DNA of 15,353 bases from Candidatus Iainarchaeum sp. (GCA_043816965.1 JBDRHK010000105.1:1-15353), one strand, 5' to 3'. Counted from the stretch's first letter, positions 1,762 through 14,800 are shown. The notes: a model not told the origin generated them from the sequence alone. Numbers and translations: made by a program.

Positions 1762-2730
1762 TTATTTTAGATGGTTTCTGTACCAGTCAATGGTTTCCTT
1801 TAGCCCATTTTCCAGCGAATATTTGGGTTTCCAGCCAAGCATCTTTTTAGCCTTTTTGCTTGAGAGCCACTGCCTGTCAATCTCGTTCTCTGCCTTCCCA
1901 AGCACTTTTGGCTTTACTCCCTTGGCGCCGCTTAATTTAATTATTTTATTGAAAAGGTCAATCACCTTTACAGGGGTTTCGGTCCCGAAATTGAACGCCT
2001 CACCGGGAATTCCTTTTTTGTCCATCTTTTCGGCAAGCAATAAATATGCATCTGCAATGTCCTTTACATAAATGTAATCCCTTTCCGGAGTTCCGTCACT
2101 CCTTATTATTGGGGTTTCATTTTTCAGGACTGATTCAATAGTTCCCGGAATAATGCGGTTGAAGTTCATGTCTCCCCCGCCATAGGTGTTCGCATTTCGC
2201 GTTATACAAACAGGGAGTGAGTAAGTGGTAAAATAGCTTTGGGAAAGTATATCTGCGCATGCCTTTGAGGCGTCATAAGGGTAACGCCCAAGGAGCGGGC
2301 TCTCCTCTGTGTAGGGCAGTTTCTTCTGCACACCATAAGCCTTGTCACTGCTTGCAACAATGACCTTTTCCACAGTTTTTGAATTCCTTGCGGCCTCCAG
2401 GATATTCCACGTTCCCTTAATATTGGATTCAAATGTTGAAAGTGGTGAGCGGTTGGCAACACCAACAATCGCCTGTGCCGCAATATGGAAAACAGCCTCG
2501 GTTTCAAACTCATTTGTTGCCCTTTCGAGAACTGAATAAGAAACTAAATCACCCTGCACAACATTAATTTTTCCATTAAGGCCCATTACATCAATATTGT
2601 TCTTCTTCTTCAAATCCCTTACAAGCGCGGTGACATTTGCCCCCTGCTCAACCAGTGCCCTGGCAACCCATGAGCCAATGAAACCATCAACCCCTGTCAC
2701 AAATGCATTTTTCCCTTTCCAGTAATCCAT
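1762..2730 (-). CDS. rfbG: NDP-sugar dehydratase/epimerase (extended SDR), CDP-glucose 4,6-dehydratase-like (RfbG / Bacillus YfnG type)
   Basis: TGVDGFIG (GxxGxxG), SSDKAYG (S/T-D-K as in CDP-Glc 4,6-dehydratases), YDASK (YxxxK). Start moved from 2781 to ATG 2730 (MDYWKGK), which follows GGAGTGA and lies 1 nt after the rfbF stop. Confidence 0.78.
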   Translation of the reverse strand: MDYWKGKNAFVTGVDGFIGSWVARALVEQGANVTALVRDLKKKNNIDVMGLNGKINVVQGDLVSYSVLERATNEFETEAVFHIAAQAIVGVANRSPLSTFESNIKGTWNILEAARNSKTVEKVIVASSDKAYGVQKKLPYTEESPLLGRYPYDASKACADILSQSYFTTYSLPVCITRNANTYGGGDMNFNRIIPGTIESVLKNETPIIRSDGTPERDYIYVKDIADAYLLLAEKMDKKGIPGEAFNFGTETPVKVIDLFNKIIKLSGAKGVKPKVLGKAENEIDRQWLSSKKAKKMLGWKPKYSLENGLKETIDWYRNHLK

Positions 2731-2731
2731 C

Positions 2732-3436
2732 TCAATCACTCCATTTCTTCCAGGGCGCTTTTCCCGATTCCCACAATTCATTCAGCAGCATATTGTCTTT
2801 AAATGTATCCATGCACTCCCAGAAACCTGTGTGCTTGAATGCGGCAATCTCTCCGTCCTTTGCAAGATTTTCAAATGGCTCCCTCTCCAAAACCGAATTC
2901 TCCCCAAGATAATCAAAAACCTTTTTCTCAAAAACAAAAAACCCCCCATTAATCCAGTGCTCGAGCTTTGGTTTTTCCCTGAATTTGGTTATGGTTCCCG
3001 AATCCCCGATTTCCATAATCCCGAACTGGCTCAGGGGATTTACTGCAGTAAGTGTCGCGGCCTTTCCCTTTTTCCCATGGAACTTAATCAGGGCATCCAA
3101 ATCCACATCCCCCAAACCATCCCCATAATTGCATAAAAATCGCCCATCAACATAATCCTCAATCTTTTTCACCCTTCCCCCTGTATTGGTTTCAAGGCCT
3201 GTATCAACAAATTCAATATCCCATTTCTCATGGTTGTTTTTAGAAAAATAATCCTTAATCTTCTCCCCCTTATATCCCAAACAAAGGACAAAATCAGTAA
3301 ACCCAAAGCCTGAATAGCTCTTCATAATATGCCACAAAATAGGCTTTCCGCCGATTTTCGCCAATGGTTTTGGGATTAATTCAGTAATTTCCCCCATTCT
3401 TGTTCCTTTTCCACCACATAGCAGGACTGTCTTCAT
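2732..3436 (-). CDS. rfbF: Glucose-1-phosphate cytidylyltransferase (RfbF-like nucleotidyltransferase)
   Basis: LCGGKGTRM-PKPL, GKPILWHIMK, LCLGYKG, VDTGLETNTGGR, YGDG, WINGGFFV, GFWECMDT, LWESGKAPW. ATG 3436 follows a GAGGTG Shine-Dalgarno. Adjacent to the RfbG-like gene. Confidence 0.85.
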   Translation of the reverse strand: MKTVLLCGGKGTRMGEITELIPKPLAKIGGKPILWHIMKSYSGFGFTDFVLCLGYKGEKIKDYFSKNNHEKWDIEFVDTGLETNTGGRVKKIEDYVDGRFLCNYGDGLGDVDLDALIKFHGKKGKAATLTAVNPLSQFGIMEIGDSGTITKFREKPKLEHWINGGFFVFEKKVFDYLGENSVLEREPFENLAKDGEIAAFKHTGFWECMDTFKDNMLLNELWESGKAPWKKWSD

Positions 3437-3485
3437 AATCAACACCTCTTAAACACAAATAGTTACAGAATTTGCCCCAAAAGGC

Positions 3486-3496: not shown

Positions 3497-4606
3497 CTAA
3501 TTAGCCCCCTTGAGCAGCTTTTCATACACTCCTTCAAAGCTTTTTATGGCCCTTTCCCAGGCGTATTTTTTCGCGGAATTCCTGGCTTCTGCGCTCAATT
3601 CGGCATAATTTGCCCCTCCTTCATAGCTCAGGGAAAGCAGCTTTTTTGCCACATTTTTCTCAAATGTGTAATCCACAATATAGCCATTCCTGCCATCCTC
3701 CACAATATTCCTGAATGCCCCAATATCATTTACAACAGGCACAATTCCTGATGCCATTGCCTCAACAAGGGAAATCCCAAAGCCCTCATAGCGCGAGGCA
3801 GAAACAAAGAACTCACACCGCGAGCGCAGTTCATCAAGCTCTGTGTCACTCAATTTTCCCATCATGAAAATATTTTCATCCATCCCATTTCCGGAAATTT
3901 TTTCCTTAAGCCCCTTAACCAAACCTTCCCAGTCCCCTCCCACTATGAAAAGTTTTGTCACCGGGTTTTCCCTAACCACAAGGGTGAAAACATCAATCAA
4001 TTTCTCAACCCTTTTGTTCCTTGAAATCCTCCCGACAAAAAGATAGGTATCCTGTTCAACATTCCTTGGAACCGAGGAGAATTTCCCGTAATCAATTGCG
4101 TTCTCAATCAACTCAACCTTGTTCGAAATTTTTGAAAAAAGTTTTTTATCATTTTCGCTCACGGCAATAATTGTAATATCTCTCAGATGCCCCTTGCACC
4201 AGTAATTGAAATACAGTTTTTTCAGCCACATTATTTTTTCAGTGTGGAAAATTCCCCCATGGGTTGAAATCACAATCGGTTTCTTGTGCTCCTTTTTCTT
4301 CCACACAAGGTAATCTGAAAAAAAGCCAATTCCGTGGATGTGAAGGAGGTCAAAACCTTTTACAAACTCCATCACTTTCGGGGCCCAGGCATAATAGGTA
4401 AATGATGTGAAGGGAATCCTGTGCACTGTGATTCCGTCAATTATTTCCTTTGCGCGTAACTCATCGCCACTTTTTGCGCACTTATTTAGAGTAACCACCT
4501 CGACCTCATGCCCCCTTTTTTTCAGCTGCAAAGTTAAATCATAAACCGCCTTTTCCAGCCCCCCAACACAGGGGGAAAAGTGGGGAACAACCTGCAGGAT
4601 TTTCAT
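3497..4606 (-). CDS. Glycosyltransferase family 4, GumH/AceA-like (candidate alpha-mannosyltransferase acting on a lipid-PP-disaccharide)
   Basis: P-VGGLE, HIHGIGFFSDYL, KPIVISTHGGIFHT, VSEND, GRISRNK and EGFGISLVE (E-x7-E). ATGA overlap with the upstream GT2. Confidence 0.88.
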   Translation of the reverse strand: MKILQVVPHFSPCVGGLEKAVYDLTLQLKKRGHEVEVVTLNKCAKSGDELRAKEIIDGITVHRIPFTSFTYYAWAPKVMEFVKGFDLLHIHGIGFFSDYLVWKKKEHKKPIVISTHGGIFHTEKIMWLKKLYFNYWCKGHLRDITIIAVSENDKKLFSKISNKVELIENAIDYGKFSSVPRNVEQDTYLFVGRISRNKRVEKLIDVFTLVVRENPVTKLFIVGGDWEGLVKGLKEKISGNGMDENIFMMGKLSDTELDELRSRCEFFVSASRYEGFGISLVEAMASGIVPVVNDIGAFRNIVEDGRNGYIVDYTFEKNVAKKLLSLSYEGGANYAELSAEARNSAKKYAWERAIKSFEGVYEKLLKGAN

Positions 4607-5568
4607 AAACCCAGCACCTCCCTTAGGAAACCATAAATCAGCCCGCCGCTAAAAACTGCCGAGCGGAGCAGGAGGAAAATCGGGGAAAGGATTGCAACAG
4701 TGAAATCCTTCCTTGATGCATAAATTGCGAAAGGGATTGAACTAATCAAAAAAATTAACAATGAAATCGCGGAAATTAAAATCAATGGCCTGAAAAAAAT
4801 CCCTAGAACTAATGAAATTGCGAAAGCATAAAAGATAATGATTTGGATTTTCAGCCTTTGGGGGGTGTAGGAATCACTGATAATTTTTTCCTTGTGCTTG
4901 CTGTAAAGCCTTATCCTCCAGTATGCGCGGTAGAATTTTGTGTAAAGGTATTCGAGCATTGAGGTCGGATGCTGATGGTAAACCTTTGCCTTTGGGTTGA
5001 ACACAAGTTTGTATTTTTTCTTCGAGATTTTGAACGAAAGGTCAGGGTCCTCCCCTGAAGCAATTGGGAAGCTCTCATCAAATCCCCCAACCTCATCAAA
5101 AACACTTTTCCTGTATGCCGCGGAGTAACTCCCGACAAAATCTATTGATTTGTGCTTTTTCAGCCTTTCATACCTTTCCTCAATCTCTATCTGCACATAT
5201 TTTGCGACAATTTCCATTTGTTTGGTTAAATATGCCCCCTGAACCCCGGCAACTTTGGGATCCGCAAATGGTGCGGCCATTTCATCCAGCCAGTTTTTTG
5301 TGGCAACACAGTCAGAATCAATGAAAACCACGATTTCACCCTTTGCGGCCATTGCCCCTGAATTCCTTGCAGTGGCAGGGCCCTTATTTTTCTGGGAAAT
5401 CAATTCAACATTATTTTTACTTGCAATCTTTTCAGTGTCATCAGTGCTCCCGTCATCAACAACAATAATTTCGTAATTGTGCTTTGTATCCTGATCCTTC
5501 AGTGATTTTAAACACTCACCAATATTCTTCCCGGCGTTGTATGCTGGAACAATAACGGAAATTCTCAT
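4603..5568 (-). CDS. Membrane-anchored glycosyltransferase family 2 with C-terminal transmembrane helices
   Basis: ISVIVPAYN, VVDDGSTD, GPATARNSG, FIDSD (DxD), GGFDESF-GED, followed by hydrophobic C-terminal segments. Confidence 0.9.
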   Translation of the reverse strand: MRISVIVPAYNAGKNIGECLKSLKDQDTKHNYEIIVVDDGSTDDTEKIASKNNVELISQKNKGPATARNSGAMAAKGEIVVFIDSDCVATKNWLDEMAAPFADPKVAGVQGAYLTKQMEIVAKYVQIEIEERYERLKKHKSIDFVGSYSAAYRKSVFDEVGGFDESFPIASGEDPDLSFKISKKKYKLVFNPKAKVYHQHPTSMLEYLYTKFYRAYWRIRLYSKHKEKIISDSYTPQRLKIQIIIFYAFAISLVLGIFFRPLILISAISLLIFLISSIPFAIYASRKDFTVAILSPIFLLLRSAVFSGGLIYGFLREVLGL

Positions 5569-5569
5569 T

Positions 5570-7015
5570 TCAATTACCCTGCGTAAGGTGCTTCAAAAAT
5601 GTTTTTGTGGATTTTATAATTCTCGGTGCTTCCCGGGGATGGGTAAAAATCTGGATGAATTTACTCAGAATATATTTCGGCCGCATGTAAAATCTTTTCC
5701 TCCCCTTATTGCATTCCTCAACCAACTCTTTATTAGTCAAGCCAGGCCTTGAAACCAGGCAGTTGTGGTTTCCCTCTTCATCAAGCCATTTGGAGAAATC
5801 TTCGCTAAGCAAAAATCCCTCTTTCTTTGCCCATTCATATGCTTCGGTCCCAGGATAAACCATTATCGGGAAAAACTGCGCGGTGTCGGGCTCAAGTTCA
5901 ATTGCAAAATCGACAGTTTTTCTGATTGTTTCCTTGGTGTCGCCCTTATTCCCGAGCATGAAACAGCCATGAATAAGAATTCCTGCCTTCTTCGCATCTT
6001 TCATAAACTGCCTAATCCCCTCAATCTTTGTTCCCTTTTTAATGTTGTTGAGAATCTCCTGCTCCCCTGACTCAACACCAACGCATAAAAGCCTGCAACC
6101 TGCCTTTTTCATCTGCTGCAGGGTTTCGAGTTTAACATCAGCCCTTGCATTGCAGCTCCAAACAAGTTTATTCCCTGCCTCAACTTTCCTCCTGCAAAAT
6201 TCTGCAGCCCTTTCAGAATCTGCTGTAAAGGTGTCATCCTCGATGAAAATTTCCTTAACCTCGGGAAAGTTCTTTCTAATGTATTCAAATTCCGCAAGCA
6301 GGTTATCAACGCTCCTTTTCCTGTAGCCCCTTCCATTCATCGTTTGTGGGAGCAGGCAATAGGTGCATTGGAAGGGGCAGCCCCTCCCGCTGATAATTGT
6401 AATTTCAGGGTAAAGGTTCGCAGAATAAAAGTAATTCCTAATGTTCAGGTGTTTTTTGTACACTTCAGAAACAAAAGGAATCTCGTCGAGATTTTCAATC
6501 AGCGCACGATTTTTGTTGTGAATAATTTTACCGCTCTTCCTGAAACTCAAACCGTCAATTTTTTCAAATTCCTTTCCCCCTCTTTCCAGCTCGGCAGCCA
6601 AATCCCGCACGGTGTAATCATACTCGCCGCGGGCGATTGCATCTATCTTGTCGGAAATTTTTAAGGTTTCCTCAGGAAGTGCGCTTGGATGGGTTCCGAC
6701 CAAAATTCCATAGCTCCCTGTCTCGTTTTTTATCTTCTCAAGGAATTTCACATCATTGTAAATGGAAGCAGTTGCGGTATCCATTACCACAAGTTCAGGC
6801 ATGAAACTTTTCGCAATAGACAGTACTTCCCTTTCTCCCAGCCCTTCGGCAGGAGCATCGATAAGTTTTACATTATGCCCTTCCTTTTCCAGAACAGCTG
6901 TTGCATAGGCTAGCCAAATGGGAAAATAAATTGTCCCCCCCTTTGCAACCGCCGGCGACCTTGAGGCGCGCGAAAATTTCGGGAGAAATGGCGGATTTAA
7001 CACTAGTATGCGCAT
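5570..7015 (-). CDS. B12-binding-domain radical SAM protein, HpnJ-like
   Basis: GRGCPFQCTYC (CxxxCxxC) after an N-terminal region of about 200 aa resembling a cobalamin-binding domain; also EDDTFT, WSCNARA, VGVESG, YPGT. GGAG lies upstream of the ATG. Confidence 0.88.
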   Translation of the reverse strand: MRILVLNPPFLPKFSRASRSPAVAKGGTIYFPIWLAYATAVLEKEGHNVKLIDAPAEGLGEREVLSIAKSFMPELVVMDTATASIYNDVKFLEKIKNETGSYGILVGTHPSALPEETLKISDKIDAIARGEYDYTVRDLAAELERGGKEFEKIDGLSFRKSGKIIHNKNRALIENLDEIPFVSEVYKKHLNIRNYFYSANLYPEITIISGRGCPFQCTYCLLPQTMNGRGYRKRSVDNLLAEFEYIRKNFPEVKEIFIEDDTFTADSERAAEFCRRKVEAGNKLVWSCNARADVKLETLQQMKKAGCRLLCVGVESGEQEILNNIKKGTKIEGIRQFMKDAKKAGILIHGCFMLGNKGDTKETIRKTVDFAIELEPDTAQFFPIMVYPGTEAYEWAKKEGFLLSEDFSKWLDEEGNHNCLVSRPGLTNKELVEECNKGRKRFYMRPKYILSKFIQIFTHPREAPRIIKSTKTFLKHLTQGN

Positions 7016-7093
7016 TATATAACTCTCCTAAGGAATTTATTATTCATTTTTGGTACATTGCTCGAAAATGCCCAAAATCAGGGCGAATTGCGG

Positions 7094-7615
7094 CTAATTG
7101 TTCTTCAAAGGCTTGAAATTCTTCCTTTTCTTCAGTACCAAATCCAGTTCAATACTTGGAATGATATGGGCCAACCACCTGTCATAGAAGAAAGGGAACA
7201 AATTAATTATGGAATTAATCCAGCTGAACAGTTTATTATTTGTAAATATGATTTTGTTCCTCACAATCTCATACTTGTAAAACGGCTGTGTTTTATCCCT
7301 GTAATGCTCGAAGGAAATCCAGCTGAAACCAGGCCTTTTATGTTCCCCCATGTAGGCGCGGTGGTTGGTGTAATAGGGCACTCTCGCTTTCACAATCCCT
7401 TCTGGCTTCAGAATCCGCCACATCTCATTCATTATGTGATAGTAATCCATATGCTCAAGGAAATGGTGCGCAAGGAGTTCATCAACAGAATTATCGGGGA
7501 AAGGAAATTTCTTGCTCAAATCAGCGACAATATCCACGCCAGGAAATTTCACCCAGTCAACGCCAATGTATCCCGGAGTCTTCCTAAATCCGCACCCTAA
7601 TTCAACTTTTTTCAT
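7094..7615 (-). CDS. Class I SAM-dependent methyltransferase (small, glycan-cluster type)
   Basis: VELGCG motif I, GVD, ADL-FPFPDNSVD, HFLEHM, EMWRILKPEG. ATG 7615 preferred over TTG 7624. Confidence 0.82.
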   Translation of the reverse strand: MKKVELGCGFRKTPGYIGVDWVKFPGVDIVADLSKKFPFPDNSVDELLAHHFLEHMDYYHIMNEMWRILKPEGIVKARVPYYTNHRAYMGEHKRPGFSWISFEHYRDKTQPFYKYEIVRNKIIFTNNKLFSWINSIINLFPFFYDRWLAHIIPSIELDLVLKKRKNFKPLKNN

Positions 7616-7645
7616 CGCAACCAAATCAACAATTCCTATAAAGTC

Positions 7646-7664: not shown

Positions 7665-8537
7665 TTAGATCAGTAGCTTTCCGTGTTTAATGCTCCCCCA
7701 GAGCCTGGCAAATTTCACCAGGAACACATAGCCAATCCCAAGCAGAATTATTGTGAGTGTATGAACTGGAGTCTTATTTTGCAGAAGCACAATCCCTTGA
7801 GGTGATGAGAAATTCATTTTCCCGTCGCTTGCCCACAAACCTGTTGCTGTTTTGAAATCCGCCATAGGATTCCGCAGAAAACCAAACTTAATGTCCATAA
7901 ACTCTTTCGCCCGCTTCGGATGCTTCTTATACAGGAGAGGGTCAACCTGGTGTATCCAAATCCTTTTCAGCCCATATTTGATTTTATTTCCCAAGCCCTC
8001 TGGCTGCTTATGCACATGCTCGAAATCGGCATTCACTTTTTTTACATCAAAACCCAAATCCTGGATTTTGAAAACAGTGTCAGTGTCCTCCCTGTTGCTG
8101 AATGGAAAATTCTCATCAAACTTCTCGGATTTCAGCAGCAACTCTTTCCTGTAGGCGGTGCTTGTCCCTCCGAATTCACTATAAGAGGAAGTAATTCCAA
8201 TTTTTTTATTTTGTTTGAATGGTGAGATTAAATTGCCCAGCCAGTTTTTTGCGGGAATGCAGTCATCGTCCATTATTGCAATTATCTCGCCCTTTGCTTT
8301 GTCAATGCCTTTATTCCTCGCTTTTGCTGGCCCCCCGCTTTTAGCATAAGAAATTGTGGAGATTTTTTTGTTTTTTTCTGAAAATTCTTTTAAAACGGTT
8401 TTAGTATTATCCTTACTTCCATCGTCAACAACAATAATTTCATAGTCAGAAAAATCCTGCCTCAGCATTGCCTCCAAAGTTCTCCGAAGAATATCGACCC
8501 TGTTATGGGTGGCAATTACGACCGTTGCATAAACCAT
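7665..8537 (-). CDS. Glycosyltransferase family 2 with a C-terminal membrane segment
   Basis: TVVIATHNR, VVDDGSKD, GPAKARNKG, MDDDC, FDENF-RED. Start moved from 8606 to ATG 8537, 1 nt after the radical SAM stop. Confidence 0.87.
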   Translation of the reverse strand: MVYATVVIATHNRVDILRRTLEAMLRQDFSDYEIIVVDDGSKDNTKTVLKEFSEKNKKISTISYAKSGGPAKARNKGIDKAKGEIIAIMDDDCIPAKNWLGNLISPFKQNKKIGITSSYSEFGGTSTAYRKELLLKSEKFDENFPFSNREDTDTVFKIQDLGFDVKKVNADFEHVHKQPEGLGNKIKYGLKRIWIHQVDPLLYKKHPKRAKEFMDIKFGFLRNPMADFKTATGLWASDGKMNFSSPQGIVLLQNKTPVHTLTIILLGIGYVFLVKFARLWGSIKHGKLLI

Positions 8538-8538
8538 G

Positions 8539-9612
8539 TCAATCAATAAATCCGGTTTGGGTGCAGTTCCAGCATACGACTGTTTTCTTCTTGGAACGCT
8601 TTGCAATTATGTCCCTGGCATCCCTGTATTTGTCATTGTTCCATATTTTCATAAATGAACTTTTGAAGGCATTCCCGAAATCATATCTCTGCGCATAAAC
8701 TCCGCAGCAAGGGCTTACCGAACCATCCCAATTGACAACGCTGACAAGCCAGGGAAAATAGCACTGGCTTTTCTGCACCTTCCTTTCCTTCTTCTCGTAA
8801 TCATATCTGCTGTAATCCTCATTCTTAGGCAGCCATTCACTTGTCTCATCCACTTTCTGCTCATCTTTTTTGAAAATTTCAGTATCCAGTTCACTTCTCA
8901 CTGCGCCGATTGCCAGTTCATCAGCCCCCCATTTCTTTCTCGTTTCCTCCAGTTTAGGGAGCTCATGCTCATTATGTTTCATAACCAAAAACTGCCATTT
9001 GATGAGCGGGGTTTTTGAATTCAGTTTCTTCTTCCACTTATTTACAATTTTTAAATTCGCAACAACCACCTCCAGTTTCCCGCCCTTCCTGTAAATCTCA
9101 TAGGTTTTTTGGGTTATTCCATCAATCGAGCAATACAATTGGTCTAAACCACTCTCAACCAATTTCTTTGCGGTTTCATCTGAAAAAGGGACATTGAGAT
9201 TTGTGTTAATGCTGGTCCAGATTTTCCTTCCATGTGCTTCTGCAATCATGTCATAAGATTCCTTGTTCAAAAACGGCTCTCCCCAGTTGTTGAAATCAAT
9301 CTCATATAAATAAGCCCCGACCTCATCCAATAGTTTTTTGAATGAAACAAGTTTCATCATTCCCCGGTCCCGATCCTTGCTCCCCCTTCCGGTTGGGCAG
9401 AGCGGGCATTTCAGCATGCAGATGTTTGTGGGGTCAAAGCTGATTTTCAATGGGTAGGCACTCACTTTGCCGCTTTTCAGCACCACTCCCTGAAACATAA
9501 GTGAGATTACGTTGAAGAATTTCCTTAAGGAAAAGTATTTTGTGAAAATAAACCTCTTCACGCTTCGCCTTATTTGGAACCGGTAATAGTTCAAAGTTTG
9601 TAGTACAGTCAT
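8539..9612 (-). CDS. Radical SAM protein with C-terminal twitch/SPASM Fe-S domain
   Basis: CMLKCPLC (CxxxCxxC), WGEPFL, NTN, SIDG, then C-x12-G-x4-CC (CYFPWLVSVVNWDGSVSPCC) and a terminal CWNC. Confidence 0.88.
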   Translation of the reverse strand: MTVLQTLNYYRFQIRRSVKRFIFTKYFSLRKFFNVISLMFQGVVLKSGKVSAYPLKISFDPTNICMLKCPLCPTGRGSKDRDRGMMKLVSFKKLLDEVGAYLYEIDFNNWGEPFLNKESYDMIAEAHGRKIWTSINTNLNVPFSDETAKKLVESGLDQLYCSIDGITQKTYEIYRKGGKLEVVVANLKIVNKWKKKLNSKTPLIKWQFLVMKHNEHELPKLEETRKKWGADELAIGAVRSELDTEIFKKDEQKVDETSEWLPKNEDYSRYDYEKKERKVQKSQCYFPWLVSVVNWDGSVSPCCGVYAQRYDFGNAFKSSFMKIWNNDKYRDARDIIAKRSKKKTVVCWNCTQTGFID

Positions 9613-9695: not shown

Positions 9696-10841
9696 ATGCG
9701 AATATTCTACCTCACACACACATTTTCCCTTGATGCAGAGCAGGGAGGGGGCGGGGAAATCTACAGCTCTTACCTGCTGAAAGAGTTGCGCAGGCAGGGC
9801 CATGAGATTTTTGTTTTCACTGTTGGGGGAAAGCCATCCAAAAGCGAGAAGCAATTGGGAATTAAAGTTTACAGGGCCCCCTCAATTGGCCACCACGCGC
9901 TGCATAAATTTGAATATATTTTATTCACCTGGAAGGCAATTAAATTAGCGCGCGAATTCGGAGCTGAAATTGTCCACGCGCAGAATGATGTGCTCCCTGG
10001 GTTGATTGCCCACTTTGTAAAATGGAGGCTGAAGATTCCATTTCTCCTTGGAATGGAGTATATTTCCGAAAATGCCCATTCCCTGAACCTGAAACTGGTT
10101 TATTTGCTCAATAAACTCCTGATTCCGGTTCTTAATTATGATTTCGTGGTTTCAATGAGCGAATTCAATGTGAGCAAATATTTGCTGAAATGGAGAGTTC
10201 CTAAAAATAAAATTAAAGTAATTCCCGTGGGAATTGATTTGCGGGAATTCAAACCTACTGCCCCCTCAAAAGAATTAATTGACAAGTATGGCTCCCATTT
10301 AATAATTTCAATAAAGCCCCTGTATTCCACCAATGCAGAGGGAATCAAGTATATAATTCGTGCATTTAAGCAGCTGGTGGAAATCTACCCTGAATACAAA
10401 TATTTGATTCTGGGGGAGGGGGAAAAGAAACCTGAATTAATTGAACTGGTGAATTCCTTGAATTTGCAGAAAAATGTGCACTTTTTGCCCCCAAAACCGC
10501 ATTCAGCCCTCCCTGAAATCTACTCCTCAGCAGAATTCATGGTCCATTCATTTGTTTATGAGGCAACAACAAGCATGGGCCTTATAGACTCCCTTGCTTG
10601 CGGAGTTCCGCTGGTTGTTACTGATTCTGGGGAAGTGAAAAACGCCTCTCAGGGAGCGGCGATTTTGGCAAAACCAAAAGATGAGAGTTCAATTGCCGGG
10701 GCAATGCTGAAACTGATTGAAAGTCCTTCATTGAGAAAGGAATTGGGAACAAACGCCCGCAAAATCGCGGAAGAAAAATTCTCGATTGAAAAGGTCGCGA
10801 ATGATTTTGTTTCCATTTACAAAAATCTCACTGGGAAATAA
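9696..10841 (+). CDS. Glycosyltransferase family 4 (GT-B), non-canonical donor motif
   Basis: GGGEIY, RQGHEIFV, IVHAQ, IKVIPVGID, ILGEGE, ACGVPLVVTDSG, EKFS. The only plus-strand gene; 14-nt tail-to-tail overlap with alg13. Confidence 0.87.
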   Translation: MRIFYLTHTFSLDAEQGGGGEIYSSYLLKELRRQGHEIFVFTVGGKPSKSEKQLGIKVYRAPSIGHHALHKFEYILFTWKAIKLAREFGAEIVHAQNDVLPGLIAHFVKWRLKIPFLLGMEYISENAHSLNLKLVYLLNKLLIPVLNYDFVVSMSEFNVSKYLLKWRVPKNKIKVIPVGIDLREFKPTAPSKELIDKYGSHLIISIKPLYSTNAEGIKYIIRAFKQLVEIYPEYKYLILGEGEKKPELIELVNSLNLQKNVHFLPPKPHSALPEIYSSAEFMVHSFVYEATTSMGLIDSLACGVPLVVTDSGEVKNASQGAAILAKPKDESSIAGAMLKLIESPSLRKELGTNARKIAEEKFSIEKVANDFVSIYKNLTGK

Positions 10842-11298
10842 ATTCCTCAAGCGCATTTATCAACCCGCTTTTTTCGCTGCTGAATTTCGGAGAGAAATTC
10901 TTTGCGTCAATTATTTTCCGCGTCAAATCAGAAATTTTGTAAACCGCGAGCGCCCTCCCGCTTTTCTCCAGCGCTTGTGCAAGGTCCATCTGATGGTCGT
11001 TCTCATGCTCCCTGAACTTTTTAAGGCGGGGAACAATAATCGCCTTCTTTTTGTTAATCAGCACATCCAAAACCGAACCGCTTCCCCCGTGAATAATAAC
11101 CAAATCAGAATTTTTCAGATTTTTTAGATACTCCCTGCGAGGGAGAAATTTGATTTTTTTAAAATTTTTAGGCTCAAAACCGGAATTTCCCAATTCAACC
11201 ACAAATTCATCCTTTATTTTTCCGATCCCTGCAATTTTATCCACTTCCCTCAGCAAACGGTCGAAGCCAGTATGGGTGCCAGTGGTAACAAAAATCAT
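10828..11298 (-). CDS. alg13: Alg13 / PssE / Cps14G-like nucleotide-sugar-binding subunit (GT28 C-terminal domain)
   Basis: MIFVTTGT-FDRL, VIIHGGSGS, IIVPR-EHENDHQMDLA; TAATG overlap with the alg14-like gene. Confidence 0.85.
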   Translation of the reverse strand: MIFVTTGTHTGFDRLLREVDKIAGIGKIKDEFVVELGNSGFEPKNFKKIKFLPRREYLKNLKNSDLVIIHGGSGSVLDVLINKKKAIIVPRLKKFREHENDHQMDLAQALEKSGRALAVYKISDLTRKIIDAKNFSPKFSSEKSGLINALEEFISQ

Positions 11299-11744
11299 TA
11301 TATCACTGCCCCAGCATATTTTGCCTTCCTGTACTTCCTGTCAATCTGCGGCCATTGCACCAAAAAAAGGTCGGCAATCGGATGAAATACCCTCCCTGAA
11401 AAGGAGGGTGTTTTTACCCTGCAGAAACTTTCGATGAAGATAATTTTCTTCCCGAACAGTTTTGCGATGTAGGCAATAGGCACTGCCACCCCTGCCCCGT
11501 TTGAAATTACCACATCCGGCTTCTCCCGCAAAAAAATTCTAAGGGACTGGAAAAAATTGATGATTAATTTGATTGGATTTCTTTTAGGATCGGTTATAAA
11601 ATAAACTAACTCTTCCTTTGCGAGGTTTTTTGAATTAATCCTTTCAAAAGTGAGGAAGAAATGCCTGTGCTTGGAATAAAAATCTTTAAGTTCCAGCAAT
11701 TCAGTCAAATGCCCACCCGCAGAACAGGCTATGCAAATTTTCAT
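11298..11744 (-). CDS. alg14: Alg14 / PssD / Cps14F-like acceptor-binding subunit
   Basis: CSAGGHLTEL, EKPDVVISNGAGVAVP, FIESFCRV-PSFSG, FLVQW. Preceded by GAGGGTGGTTGA. Confidence 0.87.
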   Translation of the reverse strand: MKICIACSAGGHLTELLELKDFYSKHRHFFLTFERINSKNLAKEELVYFITDPKRNPIKLIINFFQSLRIFLREKPDVVISNGAGVAVPIAYIAKLFGKKIIFIESFCRVKTPSFSGRVFHPIADLFLVQWPQIDRKYRKAKYAGAVI

Positions 11745-11754
11745 TCAACCACCC

Positions 11755-12771
11755 TCAGAAGAAAACCCTGAACCAGTACATCAGTAAAACAATTACGCAA
11801 ACCAAGCCCTGCATTGAGAGAAGTATCTCTGTCACCTGTGGTTCTGTAAACCTGCCCCTTCCCATCACCCAGTGTGTTAAAGAACCACCGCGGGGGTCTG
11901 GTTTTAAGGTTCCATCTTTTTGCGGAATTCCGAAGCATTCGCTCTTCAATCCATGCCTTGCCTTTATCACGAGCTCAATGAAAAAGAGCGCAAAGAGAAG
12001 GAGGCTTATTTTCTCAATATTTCCGATTATTGCAATAGTTGCTGCACTTGCCCCAATCATAAGTGTAAGTGAGTCCCCGCCAAAAATTGATGCAGGGAAC
12101 CAGTTGTACCTGAGAAACGCTATCAGCGCACCTAGCATTGCGGCCGAAATAAGTATTACCTCAATCCTACCCACATGGTCCACAGGAAGTGTGAGCATAA
12201 CAATGAGCTGTGTAAGGATAATGAGAATTCCCATCCCTGCCTCCAGGCCATTAAAGCCGGCAAGCATGTTAACCGCATTGCTTGCGCCGGTAATTGCAAT
12301 TGGGACTATTAGCAATGCATAAAGGATTCCAAAATGCACCTCCCCGAGGAACGGGAAGTACATTGATTTCATCGCAATACTTGCCGGAAGCACCATAAGT
12401 GGCAAAGCGGCAAAAATCGGCACCAGCGCATGCTGCCATTGCTCAATCCCCTTTTTCCAGCCGATTAAATCATCCATCAAACCCAGCAACCCAATGAGAA
12501 CAACAGTTGCAAATGCCGCAAGGATTGCGGTCAGGTTAAATGCCTGCATGTCAAAAAAGCCATAAAGCCCAAGGACAAACATTATTGAAAATGAAAACCC
12601 GAATAAAACTGAAATTCCGCCCATCTCGCTTATTTTCGGCTTTGCAAGCTTGTTCAGGTCCACCCCGACCAGGCCCCTTAACCTGATTCGTTGGATTATG
12701 AATGGGGTGATTGCAAAGGTTATTGCAAAAGCCGCCAGAAAAGCCGCCCCAAGATAATAGAATTCGTCCAT
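11755..12771 (-). CDS. aglH: UDP-GlcNAc:polyprenyl(dolichyl)-phosphate GlcNAc-1-P transferase (Alg7/AglH/GPT type)
   Basis: Polytopic membrane protein with GVDLNK-EMGG, GLMDD, NAVNMLAGFNGLEAG (GPT-type AGxNGLE rather than the DGLDG of MraY/WecA) and YNWFPASIFGGD. ATG 12771 chosen; GTG 12780 is an alternative. Confidence 0.85.
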   Translation of the reverse strand: MDEFYYLGAAFLAAFAITFAITPFIIQRIRLRGLVGVDLNKLAKPKISEMGGISVLFGFSFSIMFVLGLYGFFDMQAFNLTAILAAFATVVLIGLLGLMDDLIGWKKGIEQWQHALVPIFAALPLMVLPASIAMKSMYFPFLGEVHFGILYALLIVPIAITGASNAVNMLAGFNGLEAGMGILIILTQLIVMLTLPVDHVGRIEVILISAAMLGALIAFLRYNWFPASIFGGDSLTLMIGASAATIAIIGNIEKISLLLFALFFIELVIKARHGLKSECFGIPQKDGTLKPDPRGGSLTHWVMGRGRFTEPQVTEILLSMQGLVCVIVLLMYWFRVFF

Positions 12772-12838
12772 TCTAACCACTATTTTAGAATAATAGTTCC
12801 CAAACAGATTAATATTAGTATTGGGTCAAAGCTGGAAA

Positions 12839-14800
12839 TTAGGCAACCACTTTCCAGATTTTAACATCCCCCTTGCTGTAGGCCTCCTCAAAGTGCCTTA
12901 TTGAGGGGTCATTGAAGAAGAGCTTTGAAATCATCATGGAATTAACCTTTGGCCCCACTATGTAGAGCCTTGAATTGTCAGTAGCCCTGTAAACAAAGCC
13001 AACATTCCTTGCGTCGAACTGGACATTGTACTGCGACTGCCATTGGGTTGGCCAGGCAATGAAATCTTTCTCAGGGAAGCTGTTTGGCCCGCAAATATAG
13101 GTAATTTCCGAAGTGAGCTGGTTGAGGCTCCTGCCGCAATCGAAGTAAATTGTGGGCGAACCCGCAGAATCCAGATTTGCCTGGATTCGGGGATCACTGC
13201 CGTCAGTCGTGTCAAATGCATAGAGGTTTAATGAGCCGGTTTTTGTTAAAAGGTCAGCACTTAAAAGCACATAGTCCGATTTGTAACCGTCCACAATTTT
13301 GTATGCCTCCTCCTCGCTCTTGGAAAGTATGAATCTGGCGGTATTCTGGTCGGCGGCATAATCATTGTTTCTGTTGTCCTCAATAACTCCCCTTTCACCC
13401 ACAAATGTAATCCAGTGGCCCTCGTCCCACCAATTGAAAAACTTGCTTCCTTCAGGGGTGTTTTCCTCCACCCAGTAAAGGGATTCTTTCCATCCTGTGG
13501 GGAATTCAATGTTCGGGGTTTTGTTTGAGACAAAGTAGACCCCTGCCCCGACCGCAACAAGCAGCATAAAGCCCATTGCCAATCCAACGGCCTTTTTCTC
13601 GAAGTCAGTCCTGCCCTTCATTAAGATAAACAGCTCATTGAACACAAATCCCGCACTTGCGGCAATTGGCAATCCAAAAGTGTAGGTGAATTTAAGCTTG
13701 CTAATGGCCATGAAACCAGTTATTACCACCCAAAAGAAAATTATTAGCCCAAAGTGTTCCTTCCTGTCGCGCAGGAGCTTGTATGGAATCAAAAATAATG
13801 CCAGCAATGGAAATATCACAAGCGCATTGTATTTCTCGCCCCAAAACTGAAAGCCGGTGTTTTCCTCACCAACAGTCTGCGCAAGAACTGTTGGGCCCTT
13901 TGTCTGCCCCCTGGCAATATTTTCGGCAGATATGGGCGCATAACTTCCCACATAGTTAACTGCCTTTTGATACCAACAGGCAGGGGAGCCTTCACTGCAT
14001 TGCTCCCATTGGAATGCTGTCGCCATAAGTGCGAAGATAATAAACGCAACCCCGAATAACATGACAAATGAGCGTATCCTGTCAAAATTAAAATTCCTAA
14101 ACCACATAATGCCGAGCGAGGTTACAAGATATGCGGCCATTATCATCGGAACCAATAGGAACATCTCCCAGGTAAAAGCCATAATTCCGAAGAAGAGGCC
14201 TGCAAGAACTGCATTGATTAATGCCGCCCTGTTTACTGTTTCGCTTTTCAGCGCCCTCACAAAGAAGATAAAGCCAATAACCATCCACAGGAATCCAAGG
14301 GAATCCTCCTCAAAGAAACCTGCCATTGTCCTGTAAACAAAACTTGGGACAAGTGCCGCGAAAAAGCCCATTGCAACGCCTGTTTTTGTGTTGTACATTT
14401 CCTTTCCCAAAAAGAACATGGCTGCCGCTATCAGTGCACCAAATACTGCGGGCAGGAATTTAACGAAAATTATCCACAAATCCTTGTCATAGGCTCCGCC
14501 AAAGGTAAATACCTTGTAGATAGCCGCCGTAAAAATCCAGAAGAAACTGCTTTCCTTGGGCAAAAGTGAGCCCCCCATTTGATAGTAAGCAAGGGGATCC
14601 CTATCAGGAATCTCATAATTTTCCACCACATATCCCGCAATCCTTGCATGGAAGTAGGAATCAAAACCAAACATAAGGTCATATTTAATCAAATGGCCCC
14701 TGACAGCAAAAGCCAGTAGGAAAATAAGCAGTACAATTGCCCACTTTTTCCAGTCAACTTTCCCCAAAAATTCGAGCCCGCCCTGTATATTAGTATCCAT
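12839..14800 (-). CDS. aglB: Oligosaccharyltransferase AglB (STT3 family)
   Basis: Multi-TM N-terminal domain with GFDSYFH, YRTMAGFFEED, TVGE and KLKF, then a soluble domain with W-ESL-W, WWDEGHWI and DLLTK. Confidence 0.93.
   Translation of the reverse strand: MDTNIQGGLEFLGKVDWKKWAIVLLIFLLAFAVRGHLIKYDLMFGFDSYFHARIAGYVVENYEIPDRDPLAYYQMGGSLLPKESSFFWIFTAAIYKVFTFGGAYDKDLWIIFVKFLPAVFGALIAAAMFFLGKEMYNTKTGVAMGFFAALVPSFVYRTMAGFFEEDSLGFLWMVIGFIFFVRALKSETVNRAALINAVLAGLFFGIMAFTWEMFLLVPMIMAAYLVTSLGIMWFRNFNFDRIRSFVMLFGVAFIIFALMATAFQWEQCSEGSPACWYQKAVNYVGSYAPISAENIARGQTKGPTVLAQTVGEENTGFQFWGEKYNALVIFPLLALFLIPYKLLRDRKEHFGLIIFFWVVITGFMAISKLKFTYTFGLPIAASAGFVFNELFILMKGRTDFEKKAVGLAMGFMLLVAVGAGVYFVSNKTPNIEFPTGWKESLYWVEENTPEGSKFFNWWDEGHWITFVGERGVIEDNRNNDYAADQNTARFILSKSEEEAYKIVDGYKSDYVLLSADLLTKTGSLNLYAFDTTDGSDPRIQANLDSAGSPTIYFDCGRSLNQLTSEITYICGPNSFPEKDFIAWPTQWQSQYNVQFDARNVGFVYRATDNSRLYIVGPKVNSMMISKLFFNDPSIRHFEEAYSKGDVKIWKVVA

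Follow-up and report, generated by a model that had tools for sequence, protein, structure and literature searches.

An HpnJ-like radical SAM protein paired with a membrane glycosyltransferase in an archaeal aglB locus: a candidate sugar ring-contraction system

Carbocyclic sugars are known from lipids (calditol and the cyclitol ether of bacteriohopanetetrol, BHT) and from one lipopolysaccharide (caryose) (PMC9092360). A knockout of hpnJ accumulates BHT-glucosamine and a calditol synthase mutant keeps its glycosylated lipids, which places both radical S-adenosylmethionine (SAM) enzymes downstream of sugar transfer (PMC9092360). HpnJ and BchE belong to the small number of cobalamin radical SAM enzymes that do not methylate (PMC13598231). 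Here we describe P0001, an HpnJ-like radical SAM protein of 481 aa, and P0002, the family 2 glycosyltransferase (GT2) encoded next to it, in a 15,353-nt stretch of Candidatus Iainarchaeum sp. (GCA_043816965.1, JBDRHK010000105.1:1-15353). This whole stretch, contig C105 of a 1.34-Mb genome that is assembled in 109 contigs and 86% complete, is called the window. Its best database matches point to Candidatus Iainarchaeum / Diapherotrites, a DPANN group. The pair lies in an archaeal N-glycosylation locus, and P0001 may contract the ring of a sugar that P0002 would have added.

P0001, its relation to HpnJ and its pairing with a membrane GT2

P0001 showed the class B architecture, with an N-terminal Rossmann-type B12-binding domain (PF02310, residues 22-139, 45.8 bits against a cut-off of 32.1) followed by the radical SAM core (PF04055, residues 207-371, 84 bits). 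Its CxxxCxxC motif is CPFQCTYC at residue 213. The NCBIfam model of HpnJ (TIGR03471) matched P0001 at 458.9 bits, with residues 1-479 aligned on positions 1-469 of 472. The next-best family was BchE (TIGR02026) at 165.9 bits (cut-off 481.35), while methylase models reached at most 115 bits each (PhpK-type 115, HpnR 90) and the AprD4 model 90 bits. Pairwise alignment with an annotated HpnJ gave 190/481 identical residues (40%, E 6e-113). A tblastn search of plasmids and chromids with P0001 recovered annotated hpnJ genes from Paraburkholderia, Mycetohabitans, Caballeronia and Methylobacterium (36.6-40% identity, query coverage 93-100%) and bchE genes (24-26% identity). P0001 keeps 65% of the 132 columns that are invariant in six true HpnJ proteins; a probable MoeK5 and two BchE proteins keep 39-40%. 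Positions Y186, P251, R308, F337 and H349 are specifically common to P0001 and HpnJ. An earlier reading of the window from sequence alone (the sequence-only reading) had likened seven short segments of P0001 to HpnJ, and all seven (residues 31, 173, 220, 251, 286, 324 and 440) align to a stretch of annotated HpnJ. Judged by model scores, identity and tree, P0001 is specifically HpnJ-like, as that reading had held, and HpnJ is by far its closest named family.

The AlphaFold model of P0001 had a pLDDT of 95.7. The nearest solved structure was AprD4 (PDB 6FD2; TM-score 0.77/0.82), followed by TsrM, OxsB, MgmA, CysS and TokK, and AprD4 was also the best solved-structure match by sequence (E 1.2e-21; 20-21% identity). 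AprD4 is not known to bind cobalamin. The B12-type domain alone is no proof of cobalamin use by P0001, because AprD4 has the same fold.

The score of P0001 lies below the curated HpnJ cut-off of 577.6 bits, and an annotated HpnJ used as control reached 843.2 bits. Eight orthologues of P0001 scored 374-453 bits on the same model. P0001 has homologues in 50,186 representative clusters when E <= 1e-3 is required and in 7,222 when E <= 1e-30 is. NCBIfam scoring took, from the best 150 representatives, the 96 with lengths of 440-560 aa; the other 54 are shorter, longer or fused. HpnJ was the best family for 89 of these 96 full-length proteins, and four reached its cut-off. A Pfam scan of 16 proteins covered 14 of the 54 others and also took in two of the 96 and P0061/P0100.

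A careful maximum-likelihood (ML) tree of 88 rows (LG+G4) placed the six true HpnJ proteins in one clade (support 98/97) and P0001 in a separate 37-row clade (100/99). The members of the latter are orthologues from Iainarchaeota, Fibrobacterota, Planctomycetota, Omnitrophota and Lawsonia, together with several fusion proteins. The window clade and the HpnJ group join at 51, 52 and 56 rows (95/66, 98/82 and 100/99). BchE, the outgroup, and a MoeK5-like protein fall outside a 73-row clade (100/98). This MoeK5-like protein, the one methylase candidate in the tree, is L172 of Streptomyces clavuligerus plasmid pSCL4, which we take to be a probable MoeK5 orthologue from its gene order and from Pfam matches (epimerase, two Asn-synthase-like genes, radical SAM). 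P0001 grouped with neither BchE nor the probable MoeK5, either of which would have spoken against the sequence-only reading. According to this tree, the P0001 clade is a large uncharacterised clade of B12-domain radical SAM proteins, sister to the group that holds HpnJ. A BchE identity for P0001 was rejected on its score, its 24-26% identity and the outgroup position of BchE.

That P0001 is a genuine HpnJ in hopanoid side-chain biosynthesis would agree with the best family match and the 40% identity, but the cut-off, the separate clade and the gene content of the genomes speak against it. Squalene-hopene cyclase (SHC; PF13243), for which a survey had been proposed, was found in 0/6 genomes (the window's genome, 86% complete, and five others with an orthologue), and a YdjC/HpnK-type deacetylase was not found. 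HpnI (TIGR03472) was absent among the listed matches of P0002 and seven partner glycosyltransferases, while two HpnI controls scored 496 and 452 bits; BLASTP of P0002 against an annotated HpnI gave E 0.041 over 39 residues. In a published genome survey, the HpnJ model occurred only in genomes with SHC and HpnH (bioRxiv 10.1101/2025.07.29.667474). A true HpnJ in a hopanoid pathway is therefore extremely improbable and was rejected. The relation to HpnJ claimed from sequence alone stands as that of closest family, but P0001 is not the HpnJ equivalog, its GT2 is not HpnI, and no HpnK was found.

Several radical SAM homologues are interrupted by an intein between the B12 domain and the radical SAM core (P0127, P0133, P0137, P0168 and P0187). 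The insertions, at about query residues 209-236, are near the CxxxCxxC motif and carry LAGLIDADG_3 in 5/5 and Intein_splicing in 4/5. The window's own genome holds six further HpnJ-model matches of 30-228 bits (L002-L007; contigs C104, C1, C97, C59, C92 and C15), the five strongest of which are open frames of 471-514 aa, the size of a B12 radical SAM protein. One of these paralogues, L002, clusters with one of the neighbouring genes in the Altiarchaeota locus L069. This number of matches is high for a DPANN genome and would imply cobalamin salvage.

The P0001 gene stops with TGA, and one base separates it from the ATG of P0002; both genes start with ATG. The earlier description of a 481-aa B12-domain radical SAM protein ending 1 nt before the ATG of a GT2 was borne out in every detail by the open reading frame (ORF) calls. 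The C-terminal transmembrane helices that it noted in the GT2 number three by hydropathy and in the AlphaFold model. P0002 matched Glycos_transf_2 in Pfam (133.7 bits), and also Glyco_trans_2_3 and Glyco_transf_21. Its 19-residue hydropathy windows exceed 1.6 at residues 238 to 316, and the model (pLDDT 96.7) places the helices at 237-255, 261-285 and 289-319. The fold is nearest to that of PcManGT (E 1e-15), with TM-scores of 0.70-0.75 for hyaluronan synthase and 0.74 for BcsA, the transmembrane helices being covered. Conserved motifs are DSD at 84 and GED at 172-174. P0002 has the features of a minimal cellulose-synthase-like GT2, namely a GT-A domain with DXD, a catalytic acid and three transmembrane helices, and its likeness to PcManGT and to hyaluronan and cellulose synthases fits a lipid-linked acceptor at the membrane. 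The predicted complex of P0001 and P0002 (alignments A1 and A2) scored 0.00 and was not used as evidence either way.

A GT2 was counted as adjacent when it adjoins the radical SAM gene or is separated from it by a methyltransferase only. Adjacency was found in 9/12 assessable genome and plasmid loci (>=50% identity), the exceptions being L018, the Lawsonia plasmid and L010. The last was scored negative with low certainty because the GT2 of Fibrobacterota is only 23-33% identical to P0002; tblastn at 1e-5 found no GT2 downstream of L010, a weak test with such a query. Metagenome loci (>=45% identity) showed adjacency in 14 of the 20 that were assessable. The phylum sample consisted of 20 loci from 19 of 29 family groups (two from f4). 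In 14 of these loci a P0002 orthologue (49-59% identity) is found no more than 1 kb from the radical SAM gene, and in 16 no more than 5 kb; the remaining four genomes hold a 48-54% identical orthologue elsewhere. These counts are not independent, because some contigs recur between the locus sets (L185 and L008 are the same contig, as are L182 and L018); identical Pfam scores also indicate apparent duplicates (L104 of L017; L099 and L106 of L018).

Natural fusions were found as well. P0131 joins a radical SAM protein to a GT2 with the same Pfam signature as P0002, and P0148 joins a GT4 to a radical SAM protein. The annotated hpnJ genes also adjoin their GT2 gene, hpnI (L088, L092), so the logic of the gene pair is common to both systems, although the GT2s are not orthologous. 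Adjacency in most related loci and the natural fusion support a functional tie between P0001 and the membrane GT2, which is the strongest new result of this analysis.

A class I methyltransferase is fused to the radical SAM protein in P0124 of the window clade and in P0155 and P0183 of neighbouring clades, and an FkbM-type methyltransferase is fused in P0061 and P0100, both of the window clade. The order radical SAM, methyltransferase, GT2 occurs in L008, L125, L176 and L191. The cassette often has a third partner, a small class I methyltransferase. The sequence-only reading of a two-gene system was right about the pair and missed this recurrent partner. An orthologue of the GT4 at 3497..4606 directly follows the GT2 in L173, L174, L176, L180, L183-L187, L190 and L192; in L177 it is 5 kb more distant.

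Locus layout, distribution and genomic contexts

ORF calls, Pfam and NCBIfam showed that nearly all of the window is a minus-strand glycan locus (Table 1). From high coordinates, the gene order is AglB, N-acetylhexosamine-1-phosphate (HexNAc-1-P) transferase, Alg14-like, Alg13-like, a plus-strand GT4, a SPASM radical SAM, GT2, methyltransferase, P0001, P0002, GT4, CDP-glucose-type genes and two further glycosyltransferases. AglB/STT3 with WWDxG, the HexNAc-1-P transferase and the Alg13/Alg14-type genes mark an archaeal AglB N-glycosylation locus, which agrees with the aglB locus recognised earlier from the sequence. AglB itself has the STT3 and AglB-core domains and carries WWDEG at residue 457. 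Orthologues in L176, L180, L185, L188, L190 and L101 also stand next to this set of genes. The cassette is built into a locus of dolichol-linked N-glycan assembly, with AglB, the HexNAc-1-P transferase, Alg14/Alg13 and further glycosyltransferases.

Table 1. Annotated features of the glycan locus in the window
Feature	Position (nt)	Strand	Basis or remark
AglB oligosaccharyltransferase	12839..14800	-	STT3 and AglB-core domains; WWDEG at residue 457
Polyprenyl-phosphate HexNAc-1-phosphate transferase, MraY/Alg7 type	11755..12780	-	Pfam Glycos_transf_4, 111.3 bits
Alg14-like GlcNAc-transferase subunit	11298..11744	-	Pfam Alg14; PssD 153 bits, above cut-off
Alg13-like GlcNAc-transferase subunit	10828..11298	-	Pfam Glyco_tran_28_C; PssE 129 bits, above cut-off
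GT4	9696..10841	+	Plus-strand gene within the locus
Second radical SAM, SPASM/twitch type, variable locus member	8539..9612	-	Best match W_rSAM_matur (tungsten-cofactor maturase), 116.8 bits, cut-off 380
Soluble-type GT2, conserved upstream member of block	7665..8606	-	Pfam; GT2c orthologues upstream of the radical SAM gene in most phylum loci
Small class I SAM-dependent methyltransferase	7094..7624	-	Methyltransf_11 match; ORF from TTG at 7624, likely start ATG at 7615 (MKKVELGCG...)
P0001, HpnJ-like B12-domain (class B type) radical SAM, 481 aa	5570..7015	-	Pfam, NCBIfam, tree, AlphaFold model
P0002, membrane-anchored inverting-type GT2, 321 aa	4603..5568	-	Pfam, hydropathy, AlphaFold model
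GT4, conserved downstream partner	3497..4606	-	Pfam; overlaps the P0002 stop by 4 nt
Glucose-1-phosphate cytidylyltransferase-like, nucleotide-sugar supply	2732..3445	-	276.6 bits, just under equivalog cut-off 300.25
CDP-glucose 4,6-dehydratase-like, nucleotide-sugar supply	1762..2781	-	213.2 bits, just under equivalog cut-off

The methyltransferase gene lies 78 nt upstream of the P0001 gene and is intact, with motif I (ELGCG) visible in the translation. A plus-strand frame at 7058-7600 was rejected as a gene; this shadow ORF has no family and is antisense to the methyltransferase. The Alg14-like and Alg13-like genes are separate in the window, with a 1-base overlap, and their domains form a single ORF of 324-327 aa (script call) in L008 (2674-3648) and L093 (153-1136). 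The cytidylyltransferase-like ORF starts with GTG, matched its model in two separate segments and shares 50 nt with the dehydratase-like gene; its start or N-terminal part may be atypical. The SPASM radical SAM has a 57%-identical orthologue at the same position in L190, where the order is SPASM radical SAM, GT2, HpnJ-like radical SAM, GT2 and GT4, and this locus also holds two weaker copies of it. The SPASM protein may be another sugar-modifying radical enzyme.

Orthologues of P0001 (E <= 1e-100) were found in 99/151 sampled genomes of the phylum, in 46/55 of high quality (all about 1 Mb) and in 48/62 genera. One genome of the same genus gave no match to P0001 and carries an 85%-identical GT2 fragment at a contig end, so its gene is probably missing through an assembly gap. 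The recurring order in the phylum is GT2, radical SAM, sometimes methyltransferase, membrane GT2 and GT4. At least one of AglB, the HexNAc-1-P transferase, Alg13 and Alg14 is encoded within 9 kb of the orthologue in 9/20 family-representative loci, and AglB itself in 5/20. The metagenome locus L101 reads AglB, HexNAc-1-P transferase, radical SAM, Alg14, Alg13. These loci support the view that several lineages of the phylum carry the cassette within N-glycosylation loci, and the linkage to aglB and GT2 genes for which the sequence-only reading had proposed a survey was indeed seen.

The cassette is not specific to archaea. The archaeal glycan system proposed earlier holds for the N-glycan loci of the phylum, but the pair also occurs in bacterial polysaccharide clusters. 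It lies in Wzy/Wzz/export-type clusters in Planctomycetota and Omnitrophota (L016, L058). The pair forms a stand-alone module in Fibrobacterota, composed of thioredoxin, radical SAM, GT2 (about 380 aa) and flavin reductase. A thioredoxin gene is directly upstream of the pair in Fibrobacterota and related metagenome loci (L009, L012, L095, L097 and L100), a flavin-reductase-like gene is downstream in L012 and L100, and a DUF362/4Fe-4S ferredoxin-type gene is upstream in L108 and L109. These neighbours may serve specifically to supply electrons to the radical SAM or cobalamin cofactors. Two loci of Chitinispirillales (L013, 3784-6092; L103, 2010-4326) have genes for an acyl-CoA dehydrogenase and a geranylgeranyl-reductase-like protein ahead of the pair, which hints at an isoprenoid lipid acceptor.

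The 27-kb plasmid 1 of Lawsonia intracellularis (L087) is mostly a glycan-modification island. Its 50%-identical P0001 orthologue overlaps a class I methyltransferase gene and has no adjacent GT2 (radical SAM, then methyltransferase). The plasmid also carries four more methyltransferases, a second radical SAM, three GT2s, SIS, GHMP-kinase and HAD/nucleotidyltransferase genes (a GDP-heptose-type pathway), and DUF2142, DUF2304 and DUF6077 membrane proteins.

An LPG_synthase_TM gene accompanies hpnI/hpnJ(/hpnK) in Paraburkholderia and Mycetohabitans (L088, L092). Another (L069, 8527-9534) lies beside the GT2 pair of a 40%-identical relative in Altiarchaeota, a locus that also holds two more B12 radical SAM genes and a methyltransferase. 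The LPG_synthase_TM protein may be a common membrane accessory, perhaps flippase-like.

Proposed function and rival explanations

We propose that P0002 would add a hexose to a lipid-linked (dolichol-linked) acceptor at the cytoplasmic face. P0001 would then abstract a hydrogen from the membrane-tethered sugar and rearrange the pyranose to a five-membered carbocycle, as proposed for HpnJ and calditol synthase. The methyltransferase would cap a hydroxyl, and the GT4 would extend the glycan, which would be flipped and then transferred by AglB. We infer the step order, the substrate and the chemistry; sugar transfer is placed before the radical SAM step because hpnJ and cds mutants accumulate glycosylated lipid (PMC9092360). 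An HpnJ-type ring contraction by P0001 is ranked first among the chemistries because, of the 56-row clade, only HpnJ has been characterised, and because BchE, the relative that comes next, likewise forms a ring and does not methylate. We consider this contraction a real possibility without yet calling it probable. It is doubtful, and a further step, whether a carbocyclic (cyclitol-type) residue, possibly O-methylated, is made in almost all members of this DPANN phylum as part of the N-glycan or of its dolichol-linked precursor, and in several bacterial phyla as part of surface polysaccharides.

A number of points weigh against ring contraction. P0001 is under the HpnJ cut-off and in a clade of its own, and eight positions invariant in HpnJ are fixed to another residue in the P0001 clade, six of them within residues 15-38. 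The partner GT2 is unrelated to HpnI beyond the GT2 fold; since it is not HpnI and no HpnK was found, the substrate sugar would differ from the glucosamine of HpnJ. An adjacent GT2 is missing from six of the 20 metagenome loci and from the Lawsonia plasmid. The closest solved fold, AprD4, is a sugar 1,2-diol dehydratase. The two hpnJ clusters (L088, L092) show nothing like the frequent methyltransferase partner or fusion, which would fit a pathway centred on methylation just as well. The ring contraction of HpnJ itself was assigned from a single knockout (PMC9092360, PMC13459092).

Alternatively, P0001 could be a cobalamin-dependent C-methyltransferase that acts on an unactivated carbon of the sugar installed by the GT2, with the class I methyltransferase adding an O-methyl group. 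MoeK5, GenK and GenD1 methylate carbons of other sugars. Methyltransferases are fused to members of the window clade (P0124, P0061, P0100) and of neighbouring clades (P0155, P0183) or stand beside the gene in L008, L125 and the Lawsonia plasmid, where there are five of class I, and the secondary NCBIfam matches of P0001 are mostly methylases. Methylation is the commonest chemistry of the enzyme class, most characterised cobalamin radical SAM enzymes being methylases (PMC9204698, PMC13598231), and in a published similarity network with a stringent threshold HpnJ falls together with Fom3 and MoeK5, both C-methylases (PMC9204698). These class habits, the network and the many methyltransferase partners make C-methylation a serious rival, but among characterised relatives the non-methylase HpnJ is much the closest (459 bits against at most 115 for any methylase model), and the probable MoeK5 orthologue, the one methylase candidate placed in the tree, is 29.5% identical and outside the 73-row clade. 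On balance we regard C-methylation as rather unlikely. Another radical transformation of the sugar would be less likely again: an AprD4-like 1,2-diol dehydration (deoxygenation), an epimerisation, an oxidation or a C-C cross-link, in which the B12-like domain may not bind cobalamin. The best solved match of P0001 is AprD4, which acts on an aminoglycoside sugar, its NCBIfam model also matched, and function switches often in the superfamily (HpnJ as best family in 89/96, its cut-off reached in 4/96). AprD4 is nevertheless far more distant than HpnJ, no AprD3-type reductase partner was seen, and the context calls for no deoxygenation beyond the separate NDP-sugar dehydratases present.

Whatever the chemistry, the target could be a free glycolipid or a monosaccharide on polyprenyl phosphate and not the growing N-glycan, in which case the place in the AglB locus would reflect shared use of the dolichol carrier. 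HpnJ and calditol synthase both act on lipid head groups (PMC9092360). The pair of Fibrobacterota stands alone, in two loci beside a geranylgeranyl-reductase-like gene and outside any large glycan cluster, and LPG_synthase_TM genes flank both true hpnJ clusters and the Altiarchaeota locus L069. PcManGT depends on dolichyl phosphate and serves N-glycan synthesis on dolichyl-phosphate-linked acceptors. We hold such a target to be unlikely, though it merits attention. The gene in the phylum sits between glycan-extending glycosyltransferases in a recurring order, with AglB, Alg7-type or Alg13/14 genes within 9 kb in nearly half of the family loci; the radical SAM gene of L101 lies between the HexNAc-1-P transferase and Alg14; and the loci of Planctomycetota and Omnitrophota are polysaccharide clusters of the Wzy/Wzz/export type.

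The literature that we searched, with subscription journals largely outside its coverage, gave no described account of the P0001 family or of any radical SAM protein in an aglB locus, and no report of a carbocyclic sugar in a protein glycan. The conversion of a pyranose to a five-membered carbocycle by HpnJ-type chemistry has never been reconstituted and is known only from lipid head groups. The clade described here is a very large sister of HpnJ without hopanoid context, linked to GT2 genes and placed within N-glycan and polysaccharide loci. Retention in 46/55 good genomes of about 1 Mb argues for an important modification of the surface glycan. Whichever of the chemistries considered applies (ring contraction, C-methylation or deoxygenation), archaeal N-glycans and the glycans of Fibrobacterota, Planctomycetota, Omnitrophota and Lawsonia are predicted to contain an undescribed residue. 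If ring contraction does take place, a carbocyclic N-glycan residue would be the first of its kind and would extend the HpnJ/calditol type of contraction from lipid head groups to glycans. Many homologues are small and soluble, with high-confidence folds; they are available to enzymologists and, if the ring-contraction reading is true, could be used to reconstitute the reaction.

Comparison with known systems

AprD4, the radical SAM 1,2-diol dehydratase of apramycin biosynthesis, is the closest solved structure to P0001 and also acts on a sugar ring. It differs by its 20-21% identity, aminoglycoside pathway, AprD3 reductase partner and lack of GT2 coupling. C-methyltransferases of the MoeK5, Fom3 and GenK type belong to the same enzyme class as P0001, and MoeK5 and GenK methylate sugar carbons, but the probable MoeK5 orthologue L172 is 29.5% identical to P0001 and lies outside the HpnJ-like clade. 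BchE, the anaerobic Mg-protoporphyrin IX monomethyl ester cyclase, is the second-best family and, like HpnJ, forms a ring and does not methylate; unlike P0001, it is the outgroup of the tree (24-26% identity), and its substrate is a porphyrin.

P0002 resembles PcManGT (PDB 6YV7), a membrane GT2 mannosyltransferase of Pyrobaculum calidifontis, in being archaeal and in combining a GT-A domain with three antiparallel transmembrane helices (PMC10569066), but the two share only 20% identity. Calditol synthase (Cds, Saci_1489) of Sulfolobus acidocaldarius is, like P0001, an archaeal radical SAM protein, for which the contraction of a lipid-linked hexose to a cyclopentyl polyol after glycosyl transfer has been proposed (PMC13459092, PMC9092360). 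The likeness is one of proposed chemistry only and not of sequence; no calditol-named model was among the 25 best NCBIfam matches of P0001 listed.

HpnJ (TIGR03471), which is needed for the bacteriohopanetetrol cyclitol ether, is the closest system. P0001 differs by its score below the cut-off, its separate clade and a context in which no SHC, HpnH, HpnI or HpnK was seen, and its GT2 is of another subfamily. P0001, unlike HpnJ, has a frequent methyltransferase partner and lies in archaeal N-glycan and bacterial polysaccharide loci. The two proteins have in common the two-domain architecture, the length, full colinearity and a membrane GT2 as neighbour, and the likely substrate of both is a sugar already attached to a membrane-bound carrier.

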